Origin: Porphyrobacter sp.
GTDB taxonomy: Bacteria > Pseudomonadota > Alphaproteobacteria > Sphingomonadales > Sphingomonadaceae
Direction: 5' to 3'
DNA: 64,000 nt
Assembly (NCBI GenBank): GCA_032116115.1
Contig: JAUMAX010000020.1
Coordinates: 6,220-70,219, forward strand
The notes beneath the pieces were generated by a model. The model made no database searches and had not been told where the DNA came from. It saw only the letters and a program-made list of their open reading frames with translations. Position 1 is the first letter of the stretch; each line of letters begins with the position of its first letter. Positions 1,337 through 20,731 of this stretch are shown piece after piece. Position numbers and translations under genes: made by a program.

Positions 1337-1346
1337 CCAGTCTGGA

Positions 1347-2138
1347 TTATTGCCCGCAAGCGCCGGCAAGCCGCATGTCGAGCAATTCTTCACGCCGATC
1401 CTTGGACAGCTCCGCGCCAAAGGCAACATCGATCTCGCTATAAACGCTGCAGACCTGAGCGGGATCCACATTACCAAGTGCGCGCAACGCCCGGGCCAAA
1501 GCGAACAAATTCTCTGCGCCCATGCCATCAGGTGGGCCGGCCTCGAATAGCTCGATGAAAATGTTGGCCGCCTGCCCTGCCTGGCCCTGCTCCAAGTAAA
1601 CAAGGCCAAGCCGATAGCGGGCTTCCTTGATCCGCTCATCGCCAGGACTGTTGGCGATGAAAGTCGTCAGCGCAAGTTCGGCGTTCGCCCATTCTTTCCG
1701 CTCCAGAAAGGCTCCCGCCTGTTCGAGGCGGTCGACTGGCAAGGGCACAGCTTGCTGCGTCGACGCAGGCGACTCGGCTGTCCCCGTCATGGTAACAGGG
1801 GCAAGCGGAGGCGCGGCGACGATTTCACCCGCCTTCGCATCGCTGCGAAGCCGGGCCAGTTCGTCCGCCAGCAAAGCGAGGCTGCGCTGATCCTCGTCCT
1901 GCCGCGATACCAGTTGCACGATGATGCGTTCCAACGAAGCAAGTCGGTCGTTCAGGCGCAGCATTTCGTCCCCAAGCGCAGTGTACCTAAGGTCTGCAGA
2001 TGCAACTGCCTGTGCCGAGACCCGATCAGTCACAGGATCAGCCGCTGCACCGGTCTGGGCAACCGCAACAATTGGCCAGAAGGTCACTCCCGAAACGGCG
2101 AGGCCAAGCGCCGCGAGGGCGTATCGGAAACCTCCCAT
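1347..2138 (-). CDS. YbgF/CpoB-like protein (signal peptide, coiled coil, TPR)
   Basis: Signal peptide ending AVA-Q, coiled-coil segment, TPR-like ARYRLGLVYLEQG and ENLFALARAL; last gene of a tol-pal-like cluster. Confidence 0.75.
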   Translation of the reverse strand: MGGFRYALAALGLAVSGVTFWPIVAVAQTGAAADPVTDRVSAQAVASADLRYTALGDEMLRLNDRLASLERIIVQLVSRQDEDQRSLALLADELARLRSDAKAGEIVAAPPLAPVTMTGTAESPASTQQAVPLPVDRLEQAGAFLERKEWANAELALTTFIANSPGDERIKEARYRLGLVYLEQGQAGQAANIFIELFEAGPPDGMGAENLFALARALRALGNVDPAQVCSVYSEIDVAFGAELSKDRREELLDMRLAGACGQ

Positions 2139-2140
2139 GA

Positions 2141-2797
2141 TCAGAATCTGAAGCCTACGCCGGCAGCTACGATCAGCGTACCCAGCCGCCGCGAATCGTT
2201 GGTGCGCGCTTCGCGCTCGATCAACACTTCCGTTTTGCGCGAGGTGTATTTAGCGTCGAGGTTCAGATAAATTCTATCATTGATCGCTATATCCGCGCCG
2301 ATCTGGGCCACGGGCGCAAAGCCGCTTGTCAACCGGACGCTGTAAGAAGCAAACGGGTCGGGTGCAGAATTGAGCAGCGCTACATCCGCCCCCTCCCCGT
2401 AGATATTGAGATGCGTGACGCCTGCACCGACGTACGGCCGAAGGACTTTGTCATCGCGGGCAAAGTGGTACTGCACGGTCGCGGTGGACATGAGCATATT
2501 TGCAGAGACAAGCTTTTCACCCGAAGGGGCGCGCAATTGGTAACCGGCGCTTCCGAGCGCAGCCTCAAACGCGAGGCGATTGGTGAGGAACATGGTCAGA
2601 CTGACTTCTGCTCCGACAGTGTCCTCGACGCCGGATTCGACCGCTTCACCCTCGTTGGGAAGTGTTAGCGTCAACCCGTCCAGCCGGTGATGATAGGTTC
2701 CCCTTGCCTTGATGAGAATATCACCAACTTCGGCATTGGCAGGTGCGCTCCCGAGCAGGGCCGCGATGGCGGCTGCAAGCATAGTCATTTCACGCAT
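2141..2797 (-). CDS. ompW: OmpW-family outer membrane beta-barrel
   Basis: SD AAGGAA before ATG 2797, signal ANA-E, RPYVGAG, GFAPVAQIGADI, LNLDAKY, C-terminal GFRF. Confidence 0.85.
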   Translation of the reverse strand: MREMTMLAAAIAALLGSAPANAEVGDILIKARGTYHHRLDGLTLTLPNEGEAVESGVEDTVGAEVSLTMFLTNRLAFEAALGSAGYQLRAPSGEKLVSANMLMSTATVQYHFARDDKVLRPYVGAGVTHLNIYGEGADVALLNSAPDPFASYSVRLTSGFAPVAQIGADIAINDRIYLNLDAKYTSRKTEVLIEREARTNDSRRLGTLIVAAGVGFRF

Positions 2798-2816
2798 TGG
2801 TAATTCCTTTTCTGTC

Positions 2817-3362
2817 TCACTGTCCGGCCACGCCCTTGAAGATCGTCTCTCCACGCCGGTTGCGGCGCTGGCTCTCCTGATCGAGAGCGGTGGCCACCGG
2901 CTTTTCCTTGCCAAACGAGGTTATCTGAATGCGCGCCGAGGCAACGCCGCGCGCTGCCAGATGGCGCCGCATTGCCGCAGCCCGCATTTCGCCTATCGCA
3001 AATTGCCGACCACGGTTGCCCAGCAGGTCTGCATGGCCCCGCAATGTGGCGGTGACGCGTGGATTCTGGAGCAGCCATTCAGCTTGCATGTCGAGCACGC
3101 CGCGCGCCGCGGCATCGAGCGTTACGCTGTCGCGATCAAAATAAATGATGGTCGATCCCGCAAAGGGCTCAGCTACCGGTTCCACGACCACAGGCGCAGG
3201 CTCGACCTGCTGGGCGCGCAGCGGCTCGGCAGGCAACCAGAACATTGGTGCAGGAGGCAGGTCCTGGGCCGGGCGTTGGCAGGAGCTCAGTCCCACACAA
3301 AACGCCATCAGAATGGAAGCCGACCGCCGTCCGAATGGGCGCCACAACCATATACTGTTCAT
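2817..3362 (-). CDS. Pal-like OmpA-domain lipoprotein (island paralog)
   Basis: Lipobox LSSC; IYFDRDS...GHAD...GEMRA...GV...SFGKEKP; ATGA overlap with the tolB-like stop. Confidence 0.85.
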   Translation of the reverse strand: MNSIWLWRPFGRRSASILMAFCVGLSSCQRPAQDLPPAPMFWLPAEPLRAQQVEPAPVVVEPVAEPFAGSTIIYFDRDSVTLDAAARGVLDMQAEWLLQNPRVTATLRGHADLLGNRGRQFAIGEMRAAAMRRHLAARGVASARIQITSFGKEKPVATALDQESQRRNRRGETIFKGVAGQ

Positions 3363-4672
3363 GGCAGAGTCTCCGACCAATGCGGCTCAGATCCGGCCAA
3401 GGGCAGAGCGATGCGGTATTGCACCCGCCCTGCGACATCTGTGACCCAGATCTCTGGCGGACTGCCGTTTTGGCTCACCCTCTGAAAGGAAACTGCCCTC
3501 CCGCTGGGAGCCCAGGACGGGTCTTCGTCATGCCCTCCTTCGGTGAGTATCCGTCTCTTGCTGCCGTCAGGCGCCATTACGCCGATCTGCTGCCCCTCGG
3601 AGGTCTGGGTGACGAAGGCGATCAGCGATCCGTCGGGGCTCCACACCGGAGAACCGTGCACTCCACCAAAACTGATCCGGCGCTGGTCACCGCCATCTAG
3701 CCGCATCACGTACAGCTGCGGTTGTCCGGAACGGTCGGATTCAAACACAATCGATTTTCCGTCAGGAGAATAGGACGGACTTGTGTCAATTCCCGTCATG
3801 TCGGTCAGGCGCTGCGATCGGCCGACAGCGAATTCATATTCGTAAATATCGGTGTTGCCGTCTTGCGACAAAGCCAACACTGCCCGACTTCCATCAGGAG
3901 AAAAGCGGGCCGCCGACGGCAGACCGGCGGGGAGCTGCAGCGATGTCCTGCGTCCGCTTTCCAGATCGAACAGGACAATGCGTGGCATGTCGCTCTGATA
4001 GGCGACGAACAGGGCCGAGCGGTTGTCGGGACTAAACTGCGGCATCGCGACGAGTTCGCCGTTGTTCAGAAGTTCGGTTGGGTTTGCCCCGTCGACATCG
4101 ACAGCGATGAGCCGGGTGGCCGGTTCTTCAGCGGCCGCGCCGGAAGAAACAAGCACGAACCGCGTATCGAAATGGCCTGAATATCCCGTCGCATGAGCAA
4201 AGACGAGATCGGCACACTTGTGAGCCGCCCTGCGCCATTGCCGCTGGGAGACACGAAATTCACGAGCGGTTTCGATGGTGCCGCTGAAAACATCGTAGAG
4301 CGCGCAAGAATAGACCAGCATACCGTCCGCAGCGCGCGCTGGCCGTCCGATGACAAGCGCTTGCGCGCCTTTGGCCGAAAATGCGCTAAGCAAGCTCTTG
4401 TCGTCGGCAACCGCCGCCGAAGGCGCATCGACGACACGGAAGAACGAACTGGTCGTCAGATCCGCGCGAATAACCGATGCAAGGGCGAGGCCAATATCCC
4501 CGCCCGTTCCAGCTTCGACCTGAATGTCGCTGGCAATAGTCGGGATTCCGATGGCAAGCGGAGCCATCACGCCTTCTTTTATGTCGACAAACAGACGATC
4601 CTGCGCAGCTGCCGGCGAGATGCAATTCGCCACAGTCAGCAGGGCAATAGACACGGCAAGATTCAGTCTCAT
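3359..4672 (-). CDS. tolB: TolB paralog (N-terminal domain plus PD40 beta-propeller)
   Basis: WRRAAHKCADLVF, repeated PxFSPDG/PSYSPDG/PSWAPSG, FESDRSG; colinear with the core TolB in this window. Confidence 0.9.
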   Translation of the reverse strand: MRLNLAVSIALLTVANCISPAAAQDRLFVDIKEGVMAPLAIGIPTIASDIQVEAGTGGDIGLALASVIRADLTTSSFFRVVDAPSAAVADDKSLLSAFSAKGAQALVIGRPARAADGMLVYSCALYDVFSGTIETAREFRVSQRQWRRAAHKCADLVFAHATGYSGHFDTRFVLVSSGAAAEEPATRLIAVDVDGANPTELLNNGELVAMPQFSPDNRSALFVAYQSDMPRIVLFDLESGRRTSLQLPAGLPSAARFSPDGSRAVLALSQDGNTDIYEYEFAVGRSQRLTDMTGIDTSPSYSPDGKSIVFESDRSGQPQLYVMRLDGGDQRRISFGGVHGSPVWSPDGSLIAFVTQTSEGQQIGVMAPDGSKRRILTEGGHDEDPSWAPSGRAVSFQRVSQNGSPPEIWVTDVAGRVQYRIALPLAGSEPHWSETLP

Positions 4673-5559
4673 CTCAGATCTCTCGAGTCGAATTCGACTT
4701 CGACGTCGGCCCAGGCCTCATAGAGTTCGGGCGGAAGCCGGAGCGGGGAGCACATCAAAACGGCACGACGTCCGCTGTTCGTGAGCAGATTGATGTATGC
4801 GGTGCTGACTTGGTTCTGGCCGGTTACGCCGCTCCGCACCGGTTGTCCGACGACACGGCCATCCCGATCCAAGCGAAACCTCAACCGCACACTGGTAGAA
4901 GCGAGACCATCAGCCGGTGGCGGGTTCCAGCACGGCATCACCTGTGCGCGAACCTTTTCGGCCAGATCGATCTTTTGCCGGAAAGTAAGCCCTTGAATGC
5001 CCTTGGGCGCCGCTTTGCCGACTGACGAACTGATGGTTGCTGAGTTGAGCCTTGACGGCTTAGCCTCGCTGCTCGCGAGATTGCGCAAGCCTGACAGGGC
5101 GGCCGCATCAAAGCGCGCTACGCGTCCGGCGCCCGGCTGCGGCTGCACGACGGGCGACGCGTTAGCAACTTGGGTAGGTTCTTCGGCCACAGGCGTAGGG
5201 GTCGGCGCAGGCGCAGCCGTAGGCTTCGGTACAGCCAAACGACTTTCGGACTCGGTATCAGATGGAACCGTCTTTGGCGTGACCTCCGGCTCCGGGCGAA
5301 CGGAAGCGGAGCGCATTGAGACAGTTTCGGGCTCCTCGGAGACAACATCGCGAGCCTGCGGCTGCGAGCGTGTAGCTGGCGGAGCATCGGCGATAACCGG
5401 GCGCGAGACGGGCATGGCGTGCGCAAGATCGATGATCTCGATCTCCATGCCTTTCTTCCGCGGTTCAGCCTCCTGGATTGCAAAGGTGACCCTGCCCAGC
5501 AAGAGGACGACGGCAATGTGCAGGATTACCGCTAACGCGTTAGAAACACGGTCGATCAC
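4669..5559 (-). CDS. TolA/TonB-like energy transducer (island paralog)
   Basis: N-terminal TM with His (AVILH), Pro/Thr/Glu-rich linker, C-terminal domain CWNPP...RFRLDRDG...W..VEVEFD. Confidence 0.8.
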   Translation of the reverse strand: MIDRVSNALAVILHIAVVLLLGRVTFAIQEAEPRKKGMEIEIIDLAHAMPVSRPVIADAPPATRSQPQARDVVSEEPETVSMRSASVRPEPEVTPKTVPSDTESESRLAVPKPTAAPAPTPTPVAEEPTQVANASPVVQPQPGAGRVARFDAAALSGLRNLASSEAKPSRLNSATISSSVGKAAPKGIQGLTFRQKIDLAEKVRAQVMPCWNPPPADGLASTSVRLRFRLDRDGRVVGQPVRSGVTGQNQVSTAYINLLTNSGRRAVLMCSPLRLPPELYEAWADVEVEFDSRDLR

Positions 5560-6020
5560 GGCAGGTCCGCGGAAGCCGGTTCGGCCGCCGGAACGGAAAC
5601 GAACGCAACCTTGGTAAAGCCAGCTTGCGCGATTCCTGAGACAACCTCCATCACGCTGCCATAGGCAAGCGACCGATCGGCGCGGACGAAAACCATCTGT
5701 TTGTCCGGGGCCTCGGATGCAAGCGCAAGCTGGGCGATGGCCTCCCCGAAAGCCTCTGGCGCCAAAAGCGTTCCGCCCAAGTATGTTTTCTGCTCGGCAT
5801 CGAGGATGACCTCAATCGGTTCTCCCCCGGCTGCGAGCGGGTTCGCGCGAACGTCGGGAAGGTCCACCTCTGTGCCGGAAACCAGCATTTGCCCGGTGAC
5901 CATGAAGATGATCAGCAACACCAGCATCACATCCACCATCGGGGTGACGTTGATTTCGGACAACAGATGGTCCTGCCGACGATGTCGGCGAGACCCGAGA
6001 AAATGCGATTTACCTGCCAT
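5556..6020 (-). CDS. tolR: TolR/ExbD paralog
   Basis: EINVTPMVDVMLVLLIIFMV with the essential Asp; VRADRSLAYGSVMEVV. Confidence 0.92.
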   Translation of the reverse strand: MAGKSHFLGSRRHRRQDHLLSEINVTPMVDVMLVLLIIFMVTGQMLVSGTEVDLPDVRANPLAAGGEPIEVILDAEQKTYLGGTLLAPEAFGEAIAQLALASEAPDKQMVFVRADRSLAYGSVMEVVSGIAQAGFTKVAFVSVPAAEPASADLP

Positions 6021-6049
6021 TGCCGCGCCCTAAGCCCTTCCCGCCAAGA

Positions 6050-6736
6050 TCAACGGATGATGCCGTACTGACGAGAAATGGCGACTTCGACGCGACCTGC
6101 GGTCGCACGCCACTCCTGATCGGTAGCTGCGAGCGCTTGCACGATCCGGTTGTAACCCATCGATGCCGGGATCGCGCAGAACAAGCCGACTGCGGTGGCA
6201 AACAGTGCTTCCGCCATCCCAGGCGCAACAACTGCAAGCGACGTATCCTGCGCCTGGCTGATGCCAATGAAGCTGTTCATGATACCCCAGACTGTGCCCA
6301 GCAGGCCAAAGAATGGAGCAGTATTGCCAATGGTAGCCAACCAGGTCGAATTGCCGGCAAGTTGCGCATATTCGCGCTCGATTGTTAGTTCCGATGCTGA
6401 CGCAAGACGATCCCGGATGTTCTCGTAGTCGCGGCTGGCGTGTTCAATGGACCACTTCCATTCCTGGGCCAGTGAGTGCAGGATCTCATGGACCCTGCCA
6501 TCGCCTGACACAGCAAGCTCTCGTAATTCTTCAATTGTCTCGACGGAACGAAGAAGCTTGCCGACGGTGCGGATCATTCGCCGCTCAATCGCGATCGCCA
6601 ATGTGCGGGCTATGATAACCGACCATGAATAGGCAGATGCCAGGACGAGGAGAATTATGACCGATTGAACGACCAGATCGGCTTCGAAGAAAATCTGTAA
6701 GGGCGTCATGCCGGATGAAATCCTTCCGATGGTCAT
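6050..6736 (-). CDS. tolQ: TolQ/ExbB paralog
   Basis: LATIGNTAPFFGLLGTVWGIMNSF and VAPGMAEALFATAVGL MotA/TolQ motifs. Confidence 0.93.
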   Translation of the reverse strand: MTIGRISSGMTPLQIFFEADLVVQSVIILLVLASAYSWSVIIARTLAIAIERRMIRTVGKLLRSVETIEELRELAVSGDGRVHEILHSLAQEWKWSIEHASRDYENIRDRLASASELTIEREYAQLAGNSTWLATIGNTAPFFGLLGTVWGIMNSFIGISQAQDTSLAVVAPGMAEALFATAVGLFCAIPASMGYNRIVQALAATDQEWRATAGRVEVAISRQYGIIR

Positions 6737-6782
6737 AGGCGATTACCTTCTGCCTGATGCCGAAGCGCAGAGACCCGAGATT

Positions 6783-7382
6783 TTAAAGAACGAGAGCGCG
6801 GAACAGGGTGGCGAGGTCAGGCACGCCGGTGACGGTGATCTTTTCGCGCTTCTGGAATGTCTCGACCGCCGTAGCGATGGACGTGCCCCATTGACCGTCG
6901 ATCGGTCCGGAATACATTCCGCGTTCCAACAGGCGCGATTGCAAGGCTTTGAGCGCCCCCTCGCGTATCGCCATCGTCCGGCCTTTGTGTTCAATAATGA
7001 CGATGGCCGTCGCGTTGCGCTGATGCATCGGAGAGGTTGCGCGAATGACCTCGTGGGCCGCAGCTTCAACGGTAATGGTCGGCTGATCGGCACAAATTGC
7101 CGACACTGCCTGCAAGAAAACTGCTCCATCAGGGAGCGGAAGGACATCAAAGGTTCCGTTTTCCACACGATTTCGTGCAGTCGCATATCCCATCAGCCAC
7201 GAACCATAATTGGCTGCATGTGTGCTGTCCGGGAATTCCGTGTTGAATGTCTCGCACGTGCGTGAACCGTAGCCTCGCAACGCAAAGCTTCCTTCCACAT
7301 CCGATGCAGCGGCGCCGTTATGAAAAAATGCGCTGGCTGCAAAGACTGCGGAGCCCGCCAGAAACTTTGAAAAGCTGTACAT
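6783..7382 (-). CDS. Secreted protein: HdeA/HdeB-like two-Cys N-terminal domain plus PG_binding_1 domain
   Basis: Signal ending AAA-S; GYGSRTC...YGSWLMGY...N...IC..QP; C-terminal LQSRL..RGMY.GPIDG.WG....AV..FQ.......TG..D. Confidence 0.75.
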   Translation of the reverse strand: MYSFSKFLAGSAVFAASAFFHNGAAASDVEGSFALRGYGSRTCETFNTEFPDSTHAANYGSWLMGYATARNRVENGTFDVLPLPDGAVFLQAVSAICADQPTITVEAAAHEVIRATSPMHQRNATAIVIIEHKGRTMAIREGALKALQSRLLERGMYSGPIDGQWGTSIATAVETFQKREKITVTGVPDLATLFRALVL

Positions 7383-7461
7383 GCTGTGATGCCTTTGCAG
7401 AAAAAGGTGCGAAACCCCGGGTCTGGTGAATGCGCTCACCGCGCCCGAGGTTTCCACTTGA

Positions 7462-7527
7462 GTGGTCCTGACCGGAGTCGCTAGATCAGGACCACATGCA
7501 GCCCACAGGCTCGGGGGGAACCTGTGG
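7462..7527 (-). terminator. Two tandem stem-loops just after the giant gene stop (attenuator or mRNA-stabilising hairpins)
   Basis: CCACAGG(7503-7509)/CCTGTGG(7521-7527) and GTGGTCCTGA(7462-7471)/TCAGGACCAC(7486-7495) are perfect inverted repeats; no strong U-tract. Confidence 0.55.
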
Positions 7528-7537
7528 AAGCAGCAAT

Positions 7538-10500
7538 TTACTTGGCCCCGATGACGGAAACCGAGCTGTTGCCGATAGCCGTCGCCGAGCCAGCGTTGCC
7601 GCTGTTCACGAAGCTGCTGGCACCGAACGTCCCGAACGAACCGACGCTGTAGGTCACATTAGATGCAACCGCAGTCACTGCGCCGGTGTTGGTCTGCTGG
7701 TTACCCAGCGCGACATTGGCCATGCCGGTGTTCAGCGAGCTCAGCATGACAGTGTTGGCTGTCGTGTTTCCGACCGCAAAGGCCGTCGTGCTGTTGTTGC
7801 TGTTGCTGACACTTGCATTCAGCACACCCGCAGTCGTTGCCGCGCTCGTCGCGTTGAGGGCGATCGACGTCCTCCCCGTGGCGATGGCGGACACCGAACC
7901 GGTGTTCGACTGATCGTTGAGCAGCGCCGCATTTGCCTGGGCAAGGTTGGTTCCGCCATTGATCGTCGCGTTGCCATCAGCACCCGTATAGCTGGCGCCT
8001 GCGGTGTAGTTCAGCGTGTTGGAAGCGCTGTTACCGCGAGCAAGTGCCAGGGTGGTGTTACCTTCGACAGATACCGAGCTGGTATCGAGCGAAGGCAACG
8101 GGTTCGGCAGAATTCCTGCGTCGCCGCTGACAGTGAACTGAACGTTGCTGGTCGCATTAGCCACGGTGGTGGTGCTGCTGGACTGCTGGTTCACCAACAT
8201 TGCCGATGAACCAAGGTTCGCATCGGCACCCACGGACATCGTGTTGGCCGAACGGTTGGCAGTCGATTCCGACCGGGTCGCGTTGTTCGACATCGAGACG
8301 CTGCCATCGACGAGACCAGTGGTGGTCGTGTCGTTGGAGCCGATGTTGTAGACGCTCGTGGTGGCCGAAGTATCCAGCGTTCCCGTTGCATTCTGGGCGT
8401 TGACCAGAACGAACGAAGCGTCGCTGTTGGCAGTAGTGCCATTTGCAACATTCGAATTACCGGCTGCCTGAGCCACCGAAGTCGAATTGGTTGACGATGC
8501 AGTCAGCGTGTTGGTCGCGTTATTGACCACACCCAGCGCACTGTTGGCGTTGCGATCCAGTGCCACGTTCGACCCGCTGGAAACGACGTTGGCCGCCACT
8601 TCCATGTCGCTGCTGGCGTTGATGTCAGCCGTTGCACCATCTTGCACACTGGTCAGCACGCCCGACGTTGCCGTTCCGGCCAGATCCGTACCAGCAACCG
8701 TGAGGCTGTTGGTCACGGTGTTACCGATCGCTTCACCGTACGCGCTGTTGCCCGATACGCTGAGGGTCGAGTCGGTGATCGCCGTGTCAAGTGCACCATC
8801 AATTGCGAAGGTGGTGAACACTTCGGTCGTGCTGCTGCTACCTGCCAGCAGCGTCTGGGTGGAAGCCAGGGATGAGTCGGCTGTGCCTTCCGCTTCTGGC
8901 TGACCAGTCCCATTCACCCAAGCTTGGGAGTTACCGATGGCATTGTTACCATCAGCCGAAGTCGATGCGACAGTCACGCTGTTGGCCGCCGAGTTGCCAA
9001 TCGCCGACCCCTGCACCGCGTTGCCTTCAACGGCAATTGTGCTGGAGTCGATGACACCTTCAACGTCCACCAGAACACCGCCGGCGTTGAACGATCCAGT
9101 GGTGCCGGACACTGGCAGAGTTACACCGCCCGTACCGGGGGTGGCGTAGGAGAATACGCGCGTGATGGGGTTATAAGTGACGGCGTATTGGGCGAGGAAT
9201 GCATTCACCTCGTCAGTGCTCAGACCAGCAAGGCTGCCGGTCGCAACACCAGCGGTGATCGTTGCCGAAACGGTGAACGGTGCAACATCGGCGCTGCCAG
9301 CAAAACCGATCAGAGCAGAAACATCCTGCGAGCTGACCTGAGCGTTGCCAAGACCTGCAGTGACCCCGTCCAGCGTGGTTCCGTCGACACTGACCGCGTT
9401 GGTCGCACGGTTGCTGGAGGCAAGTGCCTGCAGCAGGTTACCGTTCGATTCAATCGAGGACGAAGTGACAGTGGAGTTCACGTCGGTGACAACCGCCGAG
9501 CTGTTTCCAAAGGCGCCGCCGGTTGCTTCACGCAGGCTGGCGACCACATTGCCGGCACCCGCCACCTGGGTGTTGGACACCCCGAACTGCGCGTCGACAG
9601 TATTTTGGTCGCTACCCGGATACGCATCCGACTGGGCGGTAAGCGCGCTGCCCGAAAGCGACGTGCCCGAAACCGTCAGGACATTGCTGGCCCGAGCGGA
9701 TTCTGCCGAAGTCATGACCCGGTTGTTCGAGGTTTCCACCGAGCTGCGCAGAATTGCGAGATCGATTTCAGTCTCGGCGACAGCCTGTCCATCGCCATTG
9801 ACGGTGGCAAGAATATTTGCCCCGGCAACGTTCTGGAGGTTGGCAATCGCTGCATCGCCCTGGCTGTTGACCGAAGTCAGCGTGCCGACGTCCAGAGTCA
9901 CAGCATTGGCTGCCACCGTGCCCTGTGCCTGTGCCATCAGCGTGTTGGCATTCACGACGGTGTTCGCGTCGGTCAGCCCACCTTGCACATCCATGCGGAA
10001 CGAGTTCGTGTCATCCGGAATGCTCGTGGCAGTCACACCCGCACGCACCTGCTGCACGTTGACAACGCCAAAAGCGGCGGTGGCAGTTGCATCAAGCGAC
10101 GTCGGGCGGCTGTTGGTTACACCGCCGTTCGCGCCCAGCTCAAGGATCTGCGCGTCAACGGTAAGGGTGTTGGCAGCAACGGTACCGCGTGCAATTGCCG
10201 AAGCATTGTTGCCCGCAATTTCCGCCGAACTTTCAACGACGTTACCGCGGTAGCTTACATCGACCGAAGCATTCTGCGTAGCCGTAACGGTCGAAGTTGC
10301 ATCATTGGTCTGCAAGTTCGCAATGCCAGCTGCCGAACCGACAGTGACACCCGTCAGCGACAGGCTGTTGCCAGCATCGCTGCCGACCGCAAAGGCCTGC
10401 TGGGCATTGTTGGTGACAGCAACCGAAGTGTTGGTGGCATTGCCGCTCTGAGTCTGTCCGATGGTGACATCAATGTCCGATGCACTGTTCTCGGCAGACA

Positions 10501-12196
10501 CGGTCGATGCGGTGTTGATCATTGCACTGGCAATGACGACCGCACCAGAGGCAGAGACAGCCTCGTCACCCAATGCCACCGGTGCCAGATCAACCGTCAG
10601 AGCCGCCGAAGTGGCCGTGCCGGAATTCAGCGAGGTCGCTTCCAGACCGATCGTCTGACGGGCACGGTTGCCCGCTGCGCTGGAAGCCAGAACGTTGGCA
10701 TCCACCGTGATCGTGCTGTCAATGAAGCTGGCAGTGGCACTGCCTGCAACATCAACATTGATATCAGCATTGTCCGAATCTGCCTGAAGATCAACGGTGT
10801 CCAGTTCCTGACGCGAGGCCAGCACGGCCGATGCATCAAACACTGCCGAAGAATCACCGCTGGCAATAACTGCGTTCAGGTTGTTACCCGTTGCCCCGGA
10901 CGTGATGCGGTTGGACGATGCATCAATCGAGCTGCTGTTGGGAGTCTCGACATCAACATCAACCTGGTTGCCGTCGCTCAAGCTGCGCAAAATGCCAGTC
11001 GTCACGACCTGCGTGTTCACGCCGACCAGACCGCCGCTGGCGATGACATCAGCCAGGTTGGCCGGGCCCGCACCAAGTTCGTCGATCGTTGCGCTGGCCG
11101 TATTGGCCGCCCCGGTGTTGTAGGCAAGACCATCAGCCAGTGCGATCTGCGTCGTGGCAGTGTTGCCGTTGGCCGCAGCTGCAATCGTGTTCGAAGCAAC
11201 CGACAGGCTGCTGTCGACGAACGACGTGGTGACGGCACCAGGACCGGAAATGTTGGCCCTTACGGCATTGCTCCGAGCGATAGCAGCATTGTCGGTGGTG
11301 TTCGCATCGAACGACTGCGCATTGCTGATCGCTGCCGTCACCGAGGTGTTGGCATCGTCAGCAGCAAGGCCGATCGAAGCGGTACGTGCGTTTGCAGTGA
11401 AGGTTGCAGTCACGTCATTGCCGTCGAGCGTGGCCGTTCCAGTGACGTCTGCAGTTGCAGTCGTCGAGATCGACACGAAGGTCGTCGAATCAGCCGTTTC
11501 TGCGGTCGAATCGGCGCTTGCATTTGCGATCTGCACCGACGACACCAGCAGCGTGCCCTCAAGGTCGGCAACGTCGGTGGCCGAACCCGAAAGGTCGGCC
11601 GTGACAGTAGCGTTGTTGGTGGCAAGATTGGTGTAACCAACCGGCTCCGAACCAGTGATCGACAGCGCGAAGGTGTTGCTGCCTTCGTTGATCACAACAC
11701 CGGAAGATACCGTGTTGTTCGAAACATCGACCGAACCGGTCGCGAAATCGACCAGAGTGGTGCCGATGTCTGCCGAAGAATTGGTGGCATCCACACTGGC
11801 AGTTACGCCCGTGTTGACCGACACACCCGACAGCGCAATGCCATCGTCAAGCAGGGTTGAGCTGCCGATATTGGCGAGCGAAGCCGAAACGCCGTTGCGG
11901 TTGGCAATGGCGGTCGCATCGGCAGTGTTCGCGTTGTTTTCGAACACGCCGTTGGTGACCGCACCAGTGTTGGCGGTGGTCGCATCGAAATCGACGTTGG
12001 TGGCGAGTACGGCACCAGTGTTGCGCTGGGCAGTGGTGTCACCGCCGGTGACGTGCGCCTGCAGCACCGAATCAAAGTTCGGAGCAGTCACAATGGACTG
12101 CGCTTGTGCCGGACCGGCAATGATCGCGGATGCCAAAATGGCAGTGCTGGCGCCAGCAAATAGCTGTGAGCGTTTTGTGGATATTCTACTATTCAT
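7538..12196 (-). CDS. 1552-aa secreted beta-repeat surface protein (HfaD/curli-like repeats; adhesin, fibre or S-layer candidate)
   Basis: Sec signal ending AQA-Q; about 18 copies of S-x-x-V-x-x-N-x3-A-x-A-x-G-N-x-A-x-N, mostly followed by an N-x-Q segment; rich in Ala/Ser/Thr/Asn/Val/Gly/Asp, no Cys. Confidence 0.85.
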   Translation of the reverse strand: MNSRISTKRSQLFAGASTAILASAIIAGPAQAQSIVTAPNFDSVLQAHVTGGDTTAQRNTGAVLATNVDFDATTANTGAVTNGVFENNANTADATAIANRNGVSASLANIGSSTLLDDGIALSGVSVNTGVTASVDATNSSADIGTTLVDFATGSVDVSNNTVSSGVVINEGSNTFALSITGSEPVGYTNLATNNATVTADLSGSATDVADLEGTLLVSSVQIANASADSTAETADSTTFVSISTTATADVTGTATLDGNDVTATFTANARTASIGLAADDANTSVTAAISNAQSFDANTTDNAAIARSNAVRANISGPGAVTTSFVDSSLSVASNTIAAAANGNTATTQIALADGLAYNTGAANTASATIDELGAGPANLADVIASGGLVGVNTQVVTTGILRSLSDGNQVDVDVETPNSSSIDASSNRITSGATGNNLNAVIASGDSSAVFDASAVLASRQELDTVDLQADSDNADINVDVAGSATASFIDSTITVDANVLASSAAGNRARQTIGLEATSLNSGTATSAALTVDLAPVALGDEAVSASGAVVIASAMINTASTVSAENSASDIDVTIGQTQSGNATNTSVAVTNNAQQAFAVGSDAGNSLSLTGVTVGSAAGIANLQTNDATSTVTATQNASVDVSYRGNVVESSAEIAGNNASAIARGTVAANTLTVDAQILELGANGGVTNSRPTSLDATATAAFGVVNVQQVRAGVTATSIPDDTNSFRMDVQGGLTDANTVVNANTLMAQAQGTVAANAVTLDVGTLTSVNSQGDAAIANLQNVAGANILATVNGDGQAVAETEIDLAILRSSVETSNNRVMTSAESARASNVLTVSGTSLSGSALTAQSDAYPGSDQNTVDAQFGVSNTQVAGAGNVVASLREATGGAFGNSSAVVTDVNSTVTSSSIESNGNLLQALASSNRATNAVSVDGTTLDGVTAGLGNAQVSSQDVSALIGFAGSADVAPFTVSATITAGVATGSLAGLSTDEVNAFLAQYAVTYNPITRVFSYATPGTGGVTLPVSGTTGSFNAGGVLVDVEGVIDSSTIAVEGNAVQGSAIGNSAANSVTVASTSADGNNAIGNSQAWVNGTGQPEAEGTADSSLASTQTLLAGSSSTTEVFTTFAIDGALDTAITDSTLSVSGNSAYGEAIGNTVTNSLTVAGTDLAGTATSGVLTSVQDGATADINASSDMEVAANVVSSGSNVALDRNANSALGVVNNATNTLTASSTNSTSVAQAAGNSNVANGTTANSDASFVLVNAQNATGTLDTSATTSVYNIGSNDTTTTGLVDGSVSMSNNATRSESTANRSANTMSVGADANLGSSAMLVNQQSSSTTTVANATSNVQFTVSGDAGILPNPLPSLDTSSVSVEGNTTLALARGNSASNTLNYTAGASYTGADGNATINGGTNLAQANAALLNDQSNTGSVSAIATGRTSIALNATSAATTAGVLNASVSNSNNSTTAFAVGNTTANTVMLSSLNTGMANVALGNQQTNTGAVTAVASNVTYSVGSFGTFGASSFVNSGNAGSATAIGNSSVSVIGAK

Positions 12197-12251
12197 TAGA
12201 TACAGTTCCCTTTTGGATTTGCGTGCGTTTGATTTTATTTTGCAACCCGAG

Positions 12252-13616
12252 TTACTTTATTTTTATTTGTATTTTTGCGATTTCCTGGAACCCCGGGCCA
12301 TCACGATATATTGCGGAATCGCCCGAAGATGGCCTCCAGTTCACTTGCACCGCTGAAGCAGGTACCCCCCTGTTTGAAAGCGCGGCGACTACCGCCGCAA
12401 TGCGCTGGTCCAGCAGGGCGTCGCGCCGTGCCGGATCCCAGTTCTCAGTGTCCCGCGCGACCAAAGTCACCGAGACAGTGCCCTCGCCCGAAAGCTGGGC
12501 AATCATGTCCAGCACGGATTGTGCGCTCGACATGAGATTGGAATCGCCGAACTCGAAGCCGAGCTGCATCTGGCCGGCAGCGGAAGATGCACCCTTCGCG
12601 TCCAGTTCGTTGAGCGAGCGAGCGGCTGTGGGAGTCGGCATTGCCGGAGCCTGCACAGGCGCGGGGACGTATCCTTCCTGGCTCGAAACCAACAAAGACC
12701 GTCCGCGCAGTTCGTCTGCCGACTTCTCGGGAATGGTATCGAGGCGCTGCGCCATGCAAGTCGCCGGGTCGACGTTCTTGACCGAGGCAACCAGCTTAAG
12801 AACGCCCTCCTCGAGCGCCGTGCGGATCCCAAGCTGCAAGGGCTCCTGGCCCTTCGCACCGATATTGATGTCGAACAGTTCGGTGCCGAAAAAGCGAAAG
12901 ACGCCGGCACCAATCTCGTACCCGCTGAATTGCTTTGTCAGGCTCACCGTTTTCAGCACCAGCAGTGAACGTGTATCGACAATCCGCAGGTCGATAGCGA
13001 CGCTTTGCGTGTACACACGCGCTTCCGGGCCGACATTGTTGACTGTGATTTGCGCACCGCCGGAGCGGATGTTGTAGTTTACTTCCGTGATGCCGCCGAC
13101 AATGTAGTAATCAGACTGCGCAATCGTCCCGCCAAAGTAAGGAAGCCACGGCACGCGATCACCATTTACCTGATGCACTTGGCCGTTGCCAAGCTGACGA
13201 CGATCCGTGTAGCCCAATTCGCGCTCGGCAATTGTCGGGTCAAAGCGCTCAGCTATCCGGAGCGGCCCGCCGATCTTTCCAAGTGCAGAATACACCATCA
13301 GCGATCCGCCCTGCGTGATCGCGTTGCCTTCATTGATGGAATATTTGCCGGTGTAATCGCGAACTTCTCCGACCGCGACGACAACAGGTTGGGAGGTCGT
13401 TGCAGTCAGCTGATCACCGAAGCAAGCGAGCGCCCCCTCCATCGGCGAGCGATTGTCACGAACTGGCGCACCGATTGCGATCGGCACTTCGCCCGGCGCG
13501 ACCCGCTGGCTGTCGAGGCCTACTCCCGTCGCGGCACAGCCTGAAAGGCCGCTGCCGAGCAAGGTAACCATCGCCGCAATTGCAGCGCGCGGAGTTTTGC
13601 GATTTGCGGAATGCAT
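12252..13616 (-). CDS. hfaB: HfaB/CsgG-family outer membrane lipoprotein with C-terminal OmpA-like domain
   Basis: Lipobox LSGC; VGEVRDYTGK, ITQGGSLM, SDYYIVGGITEVNYNIRSG, AIDLRIVDTRSL, EPLQLGIR match HfaB/CsgG as recalled; tail GFEFGDSNL...QRIAAVVAAL..RGVPAS resembles OmpA_C. Confidence 0.85.
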   Translation of the reverse strand: MHSANRKTPRAAIAAMVTLLGSGLSGCAATGVGLDSQRVAPGEVPIAIGAPVRDNRSPMEGALACFGDQLTATTSQPVVVAVGEVRDYTGKYSINEGNAITQGGSLMVYSALGKIGGPLRIAERFDPTIAERELGYTDRRQLGNGQVHQVNGDRVPWLPYFGGTIAQSDYYIVGGITEVNYNIRSGGAQITVNNVGPEARVYTQSVAIDLRIVDTRSLLVLKTVSLTKQFSGYEIGAGVFRFFGTELFDINIGAKGQEPLQLGIRTALEEGVLKLVASVKNVDPATCMAQRLDTIPEKSADELRGRSLLVSSQEGYVPAPVQAPAMPTPTAARSLNELDAKGASSAAGQMQLGFEFGDSNLMSSAQSVLDMIAQLSGEGTVSVTLVARDTENWDPARRDALLDQRIAAVVAALSNRGVPASAVQVNWRPSSGDSAIYRDGPGFQEIAKIQIKIK

Positions 13617-13622
13617 GGGGCT

Positions 13623-14156
13623 CTATCCAGCTGCCGCATACTGGCAAGCCGACGATCCATTGATGGTCGACGTCTGGTTGCCCGAGTTCGTCTGGCGGGT
13701 ATTGAGCGCCTGGAAATTGTCACCTCGGACAGAGGTTGACATCGAACCCGATGATCCAGCGGCGACTGCACCCGAATTGCCCTGCGTCGTTGTATCGGTG
13801 CTGCCGTCACCCGGTCCGCCAGCTGCGTATGTCGTGTCATTCTGGTTACCGGTCGCATCAGTATTGTGCCCTGCCGTGCTGGGCGAGTTGGCGACCGCAT
13901 TTGACGACGACTCATTTCCAGTCGCAGTCGAATTGACCGAGCAATTATACTGATCATCGATGTAGGTATTATATATTGGGGCCGAATAATAACCGTTTAT
14001 TCCGCGCTGACGCACTTCTTCAAGATACATAAGCGCCGCTCTATCGGCTGGTGTGTTGAATTGCCAAGCCGCATTTTCGCCAACGTTATTGGCAAATGAT
14101 GGCTGCGCGACAAGAGATCCAACCATGGATATTGCGAGAAACAACTTCTTGGGCAT
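13623..14156 (-). CDS. Small secreted Asn/Ser/Thr/Gly-rich protein, HfaA/CsgA-like subunit candidate
   Basis: ATG 14156, signal ending SFA-N; STATGN, TDATGN, QTNSGNQ motifs shared with the giant protein; sits directly upstream of hfaB as hfaA does. Confidence 0.7.
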   Translation of the reverse strand: MPKKLFLAISMVGSLVAQPSFANNVGENAAWQFNTPADRAALMYLEEVRQRGINGYYSAPIYNTYIDDQYNCSVNSTATGNESSSNAVANSPSTAGHNTDATGNQNDTTYAAGGPGDGSTDTTTQGNSGAVAAGSSGSMSTSVRGDNFQALNTRQTNSGNQTSTINGSSACQYAAAG

Positions 14157-14212
14157 TTCGTTTAACCTAATGAACTGGGAAATTCGGACGTCGCTTGAAG
14201 ATGCGGGGGCCG

Positions 14213-15541
14213 TCACAATGCAGGCATCGAACAAGCCGACGCCTCGTGCTGCGCATGAGGCGCCGCCACCTTCGCCCAGGATCTGGAAATTCGTTGACCA
14301 CCGCACCACGCGCCCTTTTGCAGCGCAGCGCGACTTTCACGCGCGACAGTAGCCAGGTTGATACAGTCCACACCGTCGACAATGACCTCGGCACCCAAGG
14401 CGTGCGCCAATCCGACAAGGTAAGAAAGTGGATCACCGCCAAATTGGGTGCGCAATGTTTGCGAGAGAAAATGCCTGTCAATCGTCACAAAATCGGGAGT
14501 GAAAGCGACCAGATCGCGCAACGACGTCGAGCCTAGGCCGAAGTTGCCGAAGGATATGCGACAACCTTGCCGCCTGAGCATGGCGAGCGTTTCGCTCATA
14601 CCTGGGGCCGCGCAGGCCACTGCAGATCCTCTGACCTCAACGATCAGGTCACGCGCTACACCGCCGCCGCGCTCGAGCTTTTCGAGAATTCCGCGCCAGA
14701 AATGTTGATCGGAGAGGCTTTCGTGAGAGACTGAGACCAATAATGAGACCGCGCCACGCGCTTCAATCAACTCGTCGGCCGCACGCGAGACGATATAGCT
14801 GTCAAGCAAATGGACGAGGCCAACTCGCTCTGATGCTGCTATTACCTGCTCGCAGGCCGCAGGCTGACCATCCGCTCTGATCAACGCAAGCGTCGCTTCG
14901 TAGAAGGCCGATCCGCCTGGCGCGGCCGCTCTGCCGACGGGCCGCCAGCCAATATCGACATCGACGACATCTCTTGCCAGTCCGACTCGCTCGGCTTCGC
15001 GAAATCCACCAATTGCGGCAAGTACGGGCGACAAGACCGCCATATCAGTACGATACGAGCGCCGAGCAGCCTCGACAGCCGACAGGATGATGACATCTGG
15101 ACCGGCCGCAGCGACGCCATTATTCAGACAGCGCTCTGAACCATCAAGATTGATTACGGAGGCGTGGAGATGAACCGGCCCCGCGGCGGTGAACACTGGT
15201 TCGAGAACAATGTCTCTGATGAGCGCTTCGAGCCAATCGCTTTCGGCATGGTCGAACCGATCAGAGCCGCGCTTGGGCGCGCCCCAGAAGATCACCCCTA
15301 CGCGTGCTGCACCTTCGGGGCTTGCTACGCCGGCCGAACCGAGCCCGGCCTGCACACGCGCCAACAAGGTGGCAAACGCAGCTTGCGCAACTTCGAGGCC
15401 GAACGCCTCGACGATCATTTGATAGTTTTGTATTTCTATTACGAACACTTGCTCCGACCTGACGTCGGATAAACGCTGCCGTAGAGAGGGGTGAATCAGT
15501 ATCTTGTTCGACAATTGCAAATCGCTGAGATCCACGTCCAC
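14213..15541 (-). CDS. Degenerate GGDEF-EAL protein (probably catalytically inactive)
   Basis: EAL-fold landmarks FYEATL, LIVEV, FGNFGLGSTSL, VTIDRHF, VIVDGVD; eroded N-terminal GGDEF-like segment; GTG start. Confidence 0.8.
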   Translation of the reverse strand: MDVDLSDLQLSNKILIHPSLRQRLSDVRSEQVFVIEIQNYQMIVEAFGLEVAQAAFATLLARVQAGLGSAGVASPEGAARVGVIFWGAPKRGSDRFDHAESDWLEALIRDIVLEPVFTAAGPVHLHASVINLDGSERCLNNGVAAAGPDVIILSAVEAARRSYRTDMAVLSPVLAAIGGFREAERVGLARDVVDVDIGWRPVGRAAAPGGSAFYEATLALIRADGQPAACEQVIAASERVGLVHLLDSYIVSRAADELIEARGAVSLLVSVSHESLSDQHFWRGILEKLERGGGVARDLIVEVRGSAVACAAPGMSETLAMLRRQGCRISFGNFGLGSTSLRDLVAFTPDFVTIDRHFLSQTLRTQFGGDPLSYLVGLAHALGAEVIVDGVDCINLATVARESRAALQKGAWCGGQRISRSWAKVAAPHAQHEASACSMPAL

Positions 15542-16376
15542 CCCTCCCCTACTTTTGATCTTTGTTTAAAAGATCTATTTTTGCGACCGAAAGGCCCAGG
15601 TGCCGATCAAACTATTGATCGAGCTCCTCAAAGGTCAGCGGCTTCTGCCGTTTTCTACCTAAGATGAAGCGAGCACTGGTTGCTTTCGTTTATGCAGATA
15701 GTGGACGGCAGGCGGCGGGGCACGTGACATTGCTGCCAATCGGCGCTCGGAATAGGACCGATATGGCGGGAAGGCTGCCGGGGCGTTGTTGAGATGCCTT
15801 TTCAAAAGCGGTTGAGCGGAGAGTAGGGGGCTTTGAAAGACTTTATAAAACAATACTGTGGTGCATCTCATGTCGCAATTTGGCTCGCCTTTGGTCTGGT
15901 TGAAAATGGTGGCAAGATGACTGCAATATCTCGCGCCCCCGCGTTGCTCCGTCAGCGGCACAGCTCAAATGCCCCCGATGCCACTTTGCAGCCTTCTCAC
16001 TTCGGGTTTGCTTTGGGCTGGCTGGCGGCGCACGCATGCACACAGATCGGTTGGTTCAAGCAAGCCCGTTGATCGAGGAAGCAATAAATCGAAGATTTGA
16101 TCCGAAGGCTTCGAGATCAATTTTCCTGCGCGCATTGGCGGATCGTCCAATGCGGCGAAACAACGATCATATTGGTTGTTTTGAGGCGGCGTCCCCCGGC
16201 TCTGGGCACGATACCGGTCTACCGCATATACATGCGGGTGATGAGTGGAGACATTCCCGTGAATGCGCGCCCACTAGCGATCCCGCCGCCCCCTTTGCGA
16301 CAATTTCACCGGGGCTCCCACCGCTGAATTGGGGGTCATGCCATAGCAATCACAACTGCCCAGAGGAAAGGCGCAG

Positions 16377-16709
16377 CTACTCTGGCGCTGGCTGATCAAG
16401 CGCACCCAGCTTTCCCGCCGCGATAATCGCAGTCCGGAGAGCATGCGCGAGCTTGCCGTTCACCACCTCGGCGAACACCTCACGCTTGATTGCAATTAAC
16501 TCGGGTGACTGCGGACCAAGTTCATCCAAAGCGGATTGGACGATGCCCAGGACATCCTTGTGCGTTAGCGCAAGGCATGTCTCCGACTGCGCCAGCCGCG
16601 CCGCTTCGAAGTCAAACCCGATCGCACCAAGTGACGGCTTGCGATATTGTTCAGGCATAGAAACCTCATAGACTTTTGGGCGAACTGTCATTGTTGATAG
16701 CATGTCCAC
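16377..16709 (-). CDS. Small hypothetical protein
   Basis: 110-codon ORF with natural-looking helical sequence downstream of a long AT-rich intergenic region; start uncertain. Confidence 0.5.
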   Translation of the reverse strand: MDMLSTMTVRPKVYEVSMPEQYRKPSLGAIGFDFEAARLAQSETCLALTHKDVLGIVQSALDELGPQSPELIAIKREVFAEVVNGKLAHALRTAIIAAGKLGALDQPAPE

Positions 16710-17928
16710 CTAGGGTGTCCCATTAAAGTGCGCAAACGAAAGATGAGCACCTAGTATCTTGGGAAGCCAAATAAATGACACGTTAGCTGAATATTTTATA
16801 ATTTTCATTCGATTATTAATCGAACTAAGCAATTATTATTAATCAATACGCGTGATTACGCATATTGTGGCAAAATATGCACGACTCATCGCAATCATAT
16901 CGTTATAAAATTTAGCTTAAATGCTAGAAACAAAAATACAGTAAACCCTCAGTATTACACTTTGATTATACTAAAGCGGTCAGTAAAATCCAACAACTTG
17001 ACTACATTTTTTTACATTTACTAAAAAACCTCTAAATACTATCCTGAAATTGATATTTCTAACTTAATCCCGTTGACTTCGTTGGAGGCATTTATCAATT
17101 AGCCGATCCTGATTGCGTAAAGGCCTCCCAATGCGAGTTGGCAGTACGACCTGAATCCCCTGCATTTGCGGTCCCCCAACGCACTGTTTTTGATCCCTAG
17201 GCGAGGATCTGCGCAACAGCATTTCCCCAGCTGACTGTCAAAATTGCAAAAAATACAATAAGTTCAGGGATGATTGTTGCCGCAGGCAGATCGACGAGAA
17301 CAATATCGACGTTTGCGGGGATGGGTGATCTGGCGATGCAATCAGCTCTTGCGCCCATCAAGTGGCGACAGACAAGGTGTTCAGCGTTGGCGTCGAGTTC
17401 CTCGCTGGCGGCGAAATCGGTGCGGCTGTCCGAGGCGACGGGGCAATCATCATCGGCAACCTGAAATGTGCTGCTGATCTCGTGCACTAGGAACTGGGCA
17501 CTCAAACTTTTGCAGTTTTGCATGACTTCCAATTTAACTTTTGCCCACATATTCTTGTCTGTCGCCCCATTTATGCGAGCGGGCGATGGGCTTTTTTTGC
17601 GGCCTCGTCGCGAAGAAGAGTTGCCGTTTTGGTGTCATTTGGCGCGATATTGGCAACAAGTTTGGCGCTATCGACCAAGTGTGGCCCGCTTTTGCGCATA
17701 AAAGCCAGATAGCCGGACAGGCTGCGTTCGGCACAGCTGCATTCCGCGCTCTGAGCCAGTCTGCAATTTCTGGTTGTCAGGTGTTAGCTAAGAGATTGCG
17801 GCACACCTGCCGGCGGGTAACGACGGCATCGCCCCAATGTTGGTTGTTCAGGACAATTCAAACTTCTTCCTCTTTCATGCGTGCAATAGACCGGCCCTGA
17901 TAGTTTAGATCGAGGCCTAAAGCGGATA

Positions 17929-20308: not shown

Positions 20309-20488
20309 AAGTGGAACATACCACGCAAGCCCCTCTTTCAAAAGCAACAAGACTCAACTTTATTCACAGCTGTGGAAACGACTGGACTACGGCGGCACGG
20401 CAAGCATTACTGTTCCTGCGCCCGGCGAACCGGGCTCGTCCCGGTAGCGGCGGCCATTCCGGCCCCGCCGCGCAAACCGGAGACGAAC

Positions 20489-20731
20489 ATGGCTGCTACC
20501 AACGCCGCAACCAGCCCCAGCGCCGCAAAGCCCGCGAGCAAGCTCGATACACTCGAGAAGCTGCTCACGCGCAAGAACGGCGCCGCCATTGCCGAGATGA
20601 CCAAAGCCACCGGATGGCAACAGCACTCGGTGCGCGGCGCGCTTGCAGGCGCCATGAGGAAGCGCGGGCACACGATCACCTCGGACAAGGTGGATGGCAC
20701 GCGCCGCTACAAGATCGAGGTCGCCCAATGA
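20489..20731 (+). CDS. DUF3489-like small winged-helix protein
   Basis: SD GGAG; GAAIAEMTKATGWQQHSVRGALAG motif. Confidence 0.8.
   Translation: MAATNAATSPSAAKPASKLDTLEKLLTRKNGAAIAEMTKATGWQQHSVRGALAGAMRKRGHTITSDKVDGTRRYKIEVAQ

Follow-up and report, generated by a model that had tools for sequence, protein, structure and literature searches.

A giant cysteine-free repeat protein encoded next to an HfaB/CsgG-type pore in Porphyrobacter: a predicted all-beta body and a candidate export route

Introduction

The locus described here raises the question of what kind of protein a very long, highly repetitive bacterial gene encodes, and how such a protein would reach the cell surface. It lies in a 64,000-nucleotide stretch of Porphyrobacter sp. 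(GenBank assembly GCA_032116115.1, contig JAUMAX010000020.1, positions 6,220 to 70,219 of the forward strand; hereafter the window), where positions 7538-12196 are occupied by one giant repeat gene directly downstream of a gene for an HfaB/CsgG-type lipoprotein. An earlier note, made by reading the letters alone, had placed here a 1552-residue protein without cysteine and almost without lysine, built from bipartite repeats, and had proposed that it is a long beta-solenoid whose export depends on HfaB.

The substrates known for type VIII (curli/holdfast-type) secretion are short and amyloid-like: CsgA passes through CsgG, and HfaA and HfaD pass through HfaB. A candidate cargo of more than 1500 residues beside such a pore is a different case in size, and we have analysed its sequence, predicted structure, relatives and gene neighbourhood. 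These data lead us to think that the product is rather probably a cell-surface beta-solenoid rod exported via the HfaB-like pore.

Results

The interval is filled by a single open reading frame (ORF) of 1552 codons on the minus strand; the plus-strand reading of the same positions was ruled out, its frame being full of stops. The ORF is a real gene and codes for a Sec-exported, very acidic protein of ~148 kDa. Behind a standard Sec signal peptide, which ends AQA before QS, the mature chain has 1520 amino acids (aa), a mass of 147.7 kDa, a calculated pI of ~4 and a net charge of ~-88, and the repeat protein carries 118 acidic residues (88 Asp, 30 Glu) against 30 basic ones. Six amino acids, Ala (17%), Ser (13%), Thr (13%), Val (10%), Asn (9.8%) and Gly (9.3%), make up 72% of it. 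Cysteine is absent, lysine occurs only at position 8, within the signal peptide, and at position 1552, the final residue, and His and Trp occur once each. Taking the other long ORFs of the window as background (Lys 2.4%, Cys 1.15%, Asn 2.65%), the probability of finding two or fewer lysines is ~2e-14 and that of finding no cysteine ~2e-8. Computed tryptic peptides of 7-35 aa cover just 9.5% of the mature protein, and trypsin proteomics would therefore under-detect it. Several open frames lie antisense to the repeat gene, one of 978 aa on the plus strand (8924-11860) and others of 140-300 aa; these are mirror artefacts of its biased, repetitive composition, not genes.

The sequence is built on the motif S-x-V-x-x-N-x8-(G)N-x-A-x-N-x-L-x-V, present in ~18 copies with an N-x-Q strand after each. 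A motif hidden Markov model (HMM) seeded with only five copies recovered unseeded ones at residues 655, 748, 818 and 911 (E 4e-4 to 7e-7, Z=1), so that the repeats were detected without circularity. After iteration the model found 16 copies at E<0.05, and two more, at 254 and 1210, were placed by register. The motifs start at residues 81, 152, 254, 327, 420, 492, 588, 654, 742, 816, 911, 1050, 1141, 1210, 1296, 1371, 1459 and 1525, and their spacing strictly alternates between short (66-75, ~70 residues) and long intervals (86-102, ~92 residues). The only break in this alternation is an interval of 139 residues, which carries a ~90-residue insert containing the only long helix of the structural model described below (residues 994-1003, assigned with DSSP). 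One short module of ~70 aa and one long module of ~92 aa thus form a supermodule of ~165 aa, of which the protein has 8.5; the nine aligned supermodules share a pairwise identity of 16-33%. The distance from motif to N-x-Q strand, measured in residues 1059-1552, also depends on the module type: short modules have the strand at +31-33, long modules at +47-55. Up to this point the earlier note was borne out: the 1552-aa ORF is there, although no strand had been named for it, the lack of Cys and near lack of Lys and its expected consequence for trypsin-based detection hold, and repeat detection, which had been suggested as a check, recovered the 18 copies with their N-x-Q segments and the alternation of short and long gaps that had been taken to imply about eight two-repeat supermodules.

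The structure of the protein was predicted with AlphaFold2 in two halves, residues 30-800 and 760-1552, using 26-sequence alignments. Mean predicted local distance difference test scores (pLDDT) were 87.1 and 86.7, and predicted template modelling scores (pTM) 0.88 and 0.85, respectively. Both half-models are essentially all-beta, with hydrogen-bonded stretches unbroken up to 25 residues, and the pTM of 0.85-0.88 across ~780 residues per half argues for one rigid continuous body, not a string of independent domains. At the C-terminus the modelled strand reaches the last-but-one residue without a cap. A Foldseek comparison of both half-models with the PDB gave nothing significant (best E 3e-3 to 4e-3, TM-score <= 0.11), and nearly all weak neighbours in the top-50 lists of the two halves were right-handed parallel beta-helices, namely tailspikes, PL6 and GH110 enzymes, pertactin, Ag43, EspP, EtpA and IgA1 protease. 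We read this as a parallel beta-solenoid with a cross-section unlike any solved one; TM-scores this low suggest that it departs from the pectate-lyase-type helix in cross-section or coil length. The alternating spacing of 70 and 92 residues would fit three and four turns of ~23-24 residues, and on that basis the rod would measure roughly 30 nm.

By sequence, the repeat protein had no Pfam or NCBIfam match at E = 10 and no PDB match at E = 1, and searches with Pfam, NCBIfam and a GGxGxD scan showed no Ig-like, RTX, two-partner secretion (TPS) or autotransporter-barrel signature. A chain of discrete ~100-aa beta-sandwich domains of the Ig-like or cadherin-like kind is thus at odds both with the lack of domain matches and with the pTM values; the earlier note had named discrete Ig-like or RTX domains as an outcome contradicting a solenoid, and fragment structure prediction, suggested there as a check, gave two confident all-beta halves instead of beads on a string. 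The long beta-solenoid itself fared less evenly, because the continuous, confidently modelled all-beta body and its beta-helix neighbours agree with it and the PDB offers no significant fold match.

A word-based search brought up 65 relatives, 1000-2300 aa in length and none with a name more specific than 'beta strand repeat-containing protein'. Cysteine is absent from 61 of these homologues, and lysine is scarce in all 65 (0-25 per 1000-2300 aa). A family profile made from the last 265 residues and searched against representative clusters at 50% identity matched at least 712 clusters, and for 430 of these the E-value was 1e-30 or lower. A protein usually contained 6-12 matching stretches, and among the 150 relatives listed nearly all had their best-matching one at the extreme C-terminus. 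Nearly all relatives carry A-x-A-[IV]-G-N-[SN]-x-[VA]-x-x-I within the last 16 residues. In an alignment of 24 full-length relatives the invariant columns are mostly Asn, Gly and Gln, and every full-length relative bears the same type of signal peptide, ending AxA. The family comes from isolates of Sphingomonadales and Comamonadaceae and from metagenome-assembled genomes, and its lengths reach 3465 aa; in this largest member seen (P0086) the motif extends across the whole chain behind a Sec signal. Proteins of 343-526 aa that might have bridged the family to HfaD-sized proteins were discarded as metagenomic fragments starting inside the repeat region. Some genomes hold two or three giant paralogues. 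One contig (G404, C34) has three (45817-47319, 75955-77439 and 81474-82988; frames of 1097-1473 aa) within ~37 kb, and locus L010 has two in the same orientation, ~7 kb apart (87-638 and 8001-12323).

The giant gene is the last of a cassette that begins with a degenerate EAL sensor gene and continues with the genes for a small protein with a Cys pair and for the HfaB/CsgG-type lipoprotein (Table 1). An alignment-based scan of genome contigs fetched 37 related loci, from Sphingomonadales and from Variovorax, Polaromonas and Ramlibacter; a single-protein query had found nothing. Of these loci, 29 extend far enough upstream to be informative, and in 28 the small-protein and HfaB-like genes stand directly upstream of the giant gene, on the same strand and in the same order, which ties the pore gene to the repeat gene as the earlier note had supposed; the lone exception, L010, has another giant paralogue upstream. 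This order is kept across two proteobacterial classes, and the EAL gene is found upstream in ~10 related loci, Variovorax included. The distribution of the cassette is patchy: it occurs in 6 of 151 genomes of the same family in GTDB and is absent from one genome of the same genus.

The lipoprotein clearly belongs to the family of curli and holdfast pores. It matches the Pfam CsgG family (PF03783) with 63.9 bits (cut-off 20.8, E = 1.7e-17), aligns to E. coli CsgG chains in the PDB over 195 residues (E = 5e-12) and matches the NCBIfam HfaB model (NF037935) with 203.7-205.3 bits (E 2.8e-60). Its lipobox reads LLGSGLSG-C27, a Cys-containing lipobox is kept in its relatives, and the gene is present in one copy in the genome. 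The ~130 C-terminal residues resemble OmpA, and this domain is conserved across cassette loci: in a PDB profile search 22 of 23 matches were OmpA/Pal domains (best E = 0.005), and 8 of 13 family members match Pfam OmpA (best 1.9e-5). The small protein has ENxAWQF(Q/E)T near its N-terminus, two invariant Cys (QYNC ... STAC) and a C-terminal LN-x-x-Q-T-N-S-G, with no Pfam or NCBIfam match at E = 10 and no PDB sequence match at E = 1. A similar small protein precedes the HfaB-like genes of loci L075-L078. In the GGDEF-EAL protein, DDFG has changed to GNFG, KxD to TID and ExTE to EVRG; because these catalytic motifs are replaced, it is probably a cyclic di-GMP (c-di-GMP) sensor, not a phosphodiesterase.

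A survey with the HfaB model, run on 301 alphaproteobacterial genomes with 20 regions fetched, separated eight bona fide hfa loci (368-410 bits) from ~20 lower-scoring HfaB-like loci. HfaD is ~230-415 aa long at the reference hfa loci and has 0-4 Lys in its canonical form. Bona fide HfaD and HfaA have in common with the window proteins a C-terminal ...ATA[IV]GN... and the motif Q-x-N-[ST]-G-x-V-x-A, so the earlier statement that A-x-A-x-G-N motifs occur in HfaA and HfaD is correct, with Q-x-N-x-G in addition. At other alphaproteobacterial HfaB-like loci the downstream genes code for Ser/Thr/Asn-rich proteins with few or no lysines that end in ...ATA[IV]GN..., and shorter HfaD-like proteins at further HfaB-like loci have the same C-terminal motif. 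Two of these loci, L075 and L076, belong to another alphaproteobacterial family; their HfaB-like genes are followed by proteins of 1731 and 1732 aa with 0% Lys and Cys, which the family profile matches at 5e-45 and 1e-52. Both loci also encode an extra secreted protein of ~400 aa between the HfaB-like gene and this cargo (L075:9578-10786; L076:6908-8125). A CsgG/HfaB cluster of Acinetobacter was considered as a counterpart and rejected, being a different cluster of three lipoproteins.

Downstream of the giant gene, two stem-loops reach -43.1 kcal/mol (z = -6.2; none of 200 shuffles was as stable) and have no U tract; as judged from this folding, they are likely an operon terminator or an mRNA stabiliser. 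Beyond them lie the PG_binding_1 gene and then tolQRAB-pal, and the PG_binding_1/tolQ arrangement recurs in some other Sphingomonadales (L004, L029, L032, L034).

Table 1. Features of the cassette and its flank, in positions of the window.
Feature	Position	Strand	Basis and remarks
PG_binding_1 protein, between repeat gene and tolQ	6783..7457	-	Pfam; locus comparison
Two strong stem-loops directly 3' of the repeat gene stop codon	7463..7527	-	Folding energy against shuffles
Repeat-protein coding sequence, 1552 aa	7538..12196	-	ORF reading, composition, homologues of 1000-3500 aa
C-terminal motif ...SGNAGSATAIGNSSVSVIGAK	7541..7597	-	Among the most conserved segments; family alignment and profile
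Repeat array, residues 81-1552; ~18 motif copies, 8.5 supermodules	7541..11956	-	HMM and alignment
~90-residue insert, residues 956-1048, in the sixth supermodule	9053..9331	-	Structure model and supermodule alignment
Sec signal peptide, residues 1-32, MNSRISTKRSQLFAGASTAILASAIIAGPAQA before QS	12101..12196	-	Read from sequence; carries one of the two lysines
HfaB/CsgG-family outer-membrane lipoprotein, 454 aa, putative translocation pore	12252..13616	-	Pfam, NCBIfam, CsgG structures
Divergent OmpA-like (peptidoglycan-binding type) domain, residues 323-454 of the HfaB-like protein	12252..12650	-	Profile search
Small secreted protein in the HfaA position, 177 aa from ATG 14156, ~150 aa mature	13623..14156	-	ORF and locus comparison
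Degenerate GGDEF-EAL protein, FimX-like	14213..15541	-	Pfam EAL 1.5e-25; best PDB relative FimX

On its upstream side the cassette borders a probable integrated element at ~16000-23200, next to a tRNA-Ser gene (23110-23200), with genes for a large serine recombinase (20796-22712), a ParB-N6/N4 DNA methylase (19001-20350) and two DUF5681 proteins. The G+C content is 56-61% in positions 1-16000, which hold the tol-pal genes and the cassette, falls to 50% at 16-18 kb, and is 60-68% (mostly 62-68%) from 18 kb onward.

Discussion

Our analysis suggests that this cassette would produce and export a giant surface rod. In the mechanism that we propose, the chain would, after signal cleavage, cross the outer membrane unfolded through an oligomeric, peptidoglycan-anchored HfaB-like channel. 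The absence of cysteine would keep it free of periplasmic disulfides, and such an absence is usually read as the mark of substrates that pass through narrow pores as unfolded chains. Once outside the cell, the Asn/Gln/Gly-laddered repeats would fold and thereby both drive and rectify export, and the uncapped conserved C-terminal strand motif, the small Cys-pair protein, or both, may hold the rod at the pore or nucleate it there. The rod may then act as an adhesin, as a matrix or polysaccharide anchor, or as a fibre, and the adjacent degenerate EAL protein could supply a c-di-GMP input. Of the combined earlier proposal, a solenoid acting as filament, adhesin or lattice subunit, the role is accordingly kept here as a suggestion. 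Since the repeat gene shares a conserved three-gene cassette with the pore, the HfaB-like pore family is probably the route by which bacteria without a known holdfast export very large rods to their surface.

Several points weigh against this reading. The known cargos of CsgG and HfaB (CsgA, HfaA and HfaD) are small, HfaD having ~230-415 aa, and to our knowledge there is no precedent for the export of 1500 residues through a pore of this type. The pore of the window scores below the equivalog cut-off of the NCBIfam HfaB model (~204 against 300 bits), and its constriction-loop sequence is unlike that of CsgG. Synteny shows that the pore and the giant protein are functionally linked, not the direction of the link. 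Additionally, the solenoid topology is seen only indirectly, the Foldseek TM-scores being no higher than 0.11, and neither autocorrelation nor Fourier analysis of Asn, Gly, hydrophobic and loop positions yielded a clean coil period, the sole periodic signal being loop positions at ~38-40 residues. Finally, the likeness to the holdfast proteins is short: hhalign of the family against HfaD gave only E = 0.044 (probability 1.2%) over 39 C-terminal columns, and the small protein shares with HfaA a motif of only 15 columns (hhalign E = 9e-4).

Among the alternatives, it is possible, although unlikely, that the protein is a curli-like functional amyloid, many copies of which would join end to end, at the uncapped termini of the solenoid, into fibres that resist SDS and heat, the small protein serving as nucleator. 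The window system and curli both have a pore of the CsgG Pfam family and a Sec-dependent, Cys-free substrate rich in Asn, Gln and Gly, whose strand-turn-strand repeats are expected to fold outside the cell. The Asn/Gln/Gly-Asn strand-turn motifs recall curlin repeats, the modelled terminal strand is uncapped, and SDS-resistant multimers are formed by HfaA and HfaD (bioRxiv 10.1101/2022.07.20.500906). However, the window repeat is longer and bipartite, did not match the Curlin repeat family (PF07012) even at E = 10, and belongs to a substrate ~10 times the size of CsgA; no equivalents of CsgB, CsgE or CsgF were recognised in the cassette. Furthermore, a pre-formed solenoid of 1500 residues needs no polymerisation to make a long rod, and in this regard the window cargo is probably a pre-formed rod, whereas CsgA is a polymerising monomer. 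Polymerisation is a property that sequence cannot decide.

A second alternative, which we regard as about as improbable, is that the protein is a true, expanded HfaD orthologue, the cassette being an hfaABD holdfast anchor that tethers a holdfast-like polysaccharide adhesin as in Caulobacterales. The HfaB work cited here concerns the holdfasts of this order, where HfaB is needed for the surface localisation of HfaA and HfaD (PMC6707917; bioRxiv 10.1101/2022.07.20.500906). Both systems consist of a small secreted protein, a CsgG-like lipoprotein and a Lys-poor, Ser/Thr/Asn/Ala-rich secreted beta protein. The repeat gene follows its hfaB-like gene directly, in the arrangement hfaA-hfaB-hfaD, the window pore is clearly homologous to Caulobacter HfaB, HfaD is likewise nearly free of Lys, and the A-x-A-[IV]-G-N and Q-x-N-x-G motifs are common to the window proteins and to HfaD and HfaA of the eight bona fide hfa loci. 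Beyond these motifs, however, no profile-level homology was seen for the cargo or for the small protein, whose N-terminal domain and Cys pair differ from HfaA. A phmmer search with four HfaD sequences hit neither the repeat protein nor any of 200 shuffles, the hhalign match to HfaD is confined to the few columns given above, and the family C-terminal profile did not match the four HfaD sequences at E <= 10. The window cargo is ~4 times longer than HfaD and has its 8.5 regular supermodules, and the pore, besides falling under the equivalog cut-off, carries an OmpA-like domain that was not seen at the C-termini of canonical HfaB from the bona fide hfa loci. The hosts differ as well, the cassette being present in Sphingomonadales and in Betaproteobacteria (Comamonadaceae), and it is patchy in its own family and missing from a genome of the same genus. 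A literature search found no paper on the cassette in Sphingomonadales or Variovorax, and among the papers listed for the taxa that carry it none mentioned HfaB. Because the similarity to HfaD and HfaA stops at short motifs, we place the window cassette, on this sequence evidence, beside the holdfast anchor as a sister system, not among its orthologues. The picture suggested by these comparisons is that of a broad set of HfaB/CsgG-pore cassettes, the cargos of which are alike in composition and in short strand motifs, with the window cassette as a distinct large-cargo branch.

That the protein is a surface-layer (S-layer) or lattice subunit, self-assembling into a two-dimensional coat over the outer membrane, seems to us very unlikely. 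A large, Cys-free and acidic protein rich in Ala, Ser, Thr and Asn has the typical composition of S-layer proteins, and a limited similarity of HfaD to S-layer proteins has been described (PMC6707917). Against this, the gene is the last of a multi-gene cassette, with no promoter-like site directly upstream in a consensus scan, and its patchy distribution in the family and the tandem paralogues in some genomes do not fit such a coat. In addition, the model shows one elongated repeat body with no separate lattice-forming or anchoring domain evident, and the PDB search gave no sequence match to any solved S-layer protein.

Least probable of all is that the giant protein reaches the surface, or stays periplasmic, independently of the HfaB-like protein, with synteny reflecting only regulation or a shared envelope process, since the lack of a CsgG-family pore known to pass so long a substrate and the differing constriction loop, which could be taken this way, are set against a gene order kept in all but one of the informative loci and in two classes, a cassette with no other secretion component, and a family-wide exclusion of Cys that fits unfolded export. 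The other routes by which giant proteins might leave the cell find no counterpart here, in line with the HfaB-dependent export first proposed. For type I secretion (T1SS), GGxGxD repeats and, in the cassette, T1SS genes are lacking, and the protein has a Sec signal. For the classical autotransporters (T5aSS), no translocator barrel was matched and the repeats run to the last residue, and for two-partner secretion (T5bSS) Pfam gave no TPS domain and no TpsB gene lies nearby. Autotransporter and TpsA passengers such as pertactin, Ag43, EtpA and IgA1 protease were the commonest weak Foldseek neighbours and are, like the window protein, long, Cys-poor and Sec-dependent; the window protein would also resemble them as a beta-helical surface protein whose folding outside could drive export. 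In contrast to them, the window protein has no C-terminal beta-barrel, TPS domain or TpsB partner, and its pore is of the CsgG type.

Returning to export of a beta-solenoid rod through the HfaB-like pore, we put forward a wider proposal more tentatively, as one that we would not yet call probable. CsgG/HfaB pores equipped with an OmpA-like wall anchor may provide giant monomeric beta-solenoid rods of 100-350 kDa with an export route of their own, alongside those of the T1SS and T5SS giant adhesins; the family-wide exclusion of Cys and Lys would be set by threading, and the uncapped C-terminal strand would dock on the small protein at the pore mouth.

In the loci compared here, a pore of the CsgG/HfaB family consistently stands beside putative cargos that are 1000-3500 residues long and belong to a family of at least 712 unnamed clusters. 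If export through this pore is true, the substrate size range of energy-independent outer-membrane pores would be much wider, a large family labelled 'beta strand repeat-containing protein' would gain a function, and an all-beta repeat architecture that is new, confidently modelled and without a solved counterpart would become available. What may be a major component of the surface of these bacteria would for the most part escape standard proteomics.

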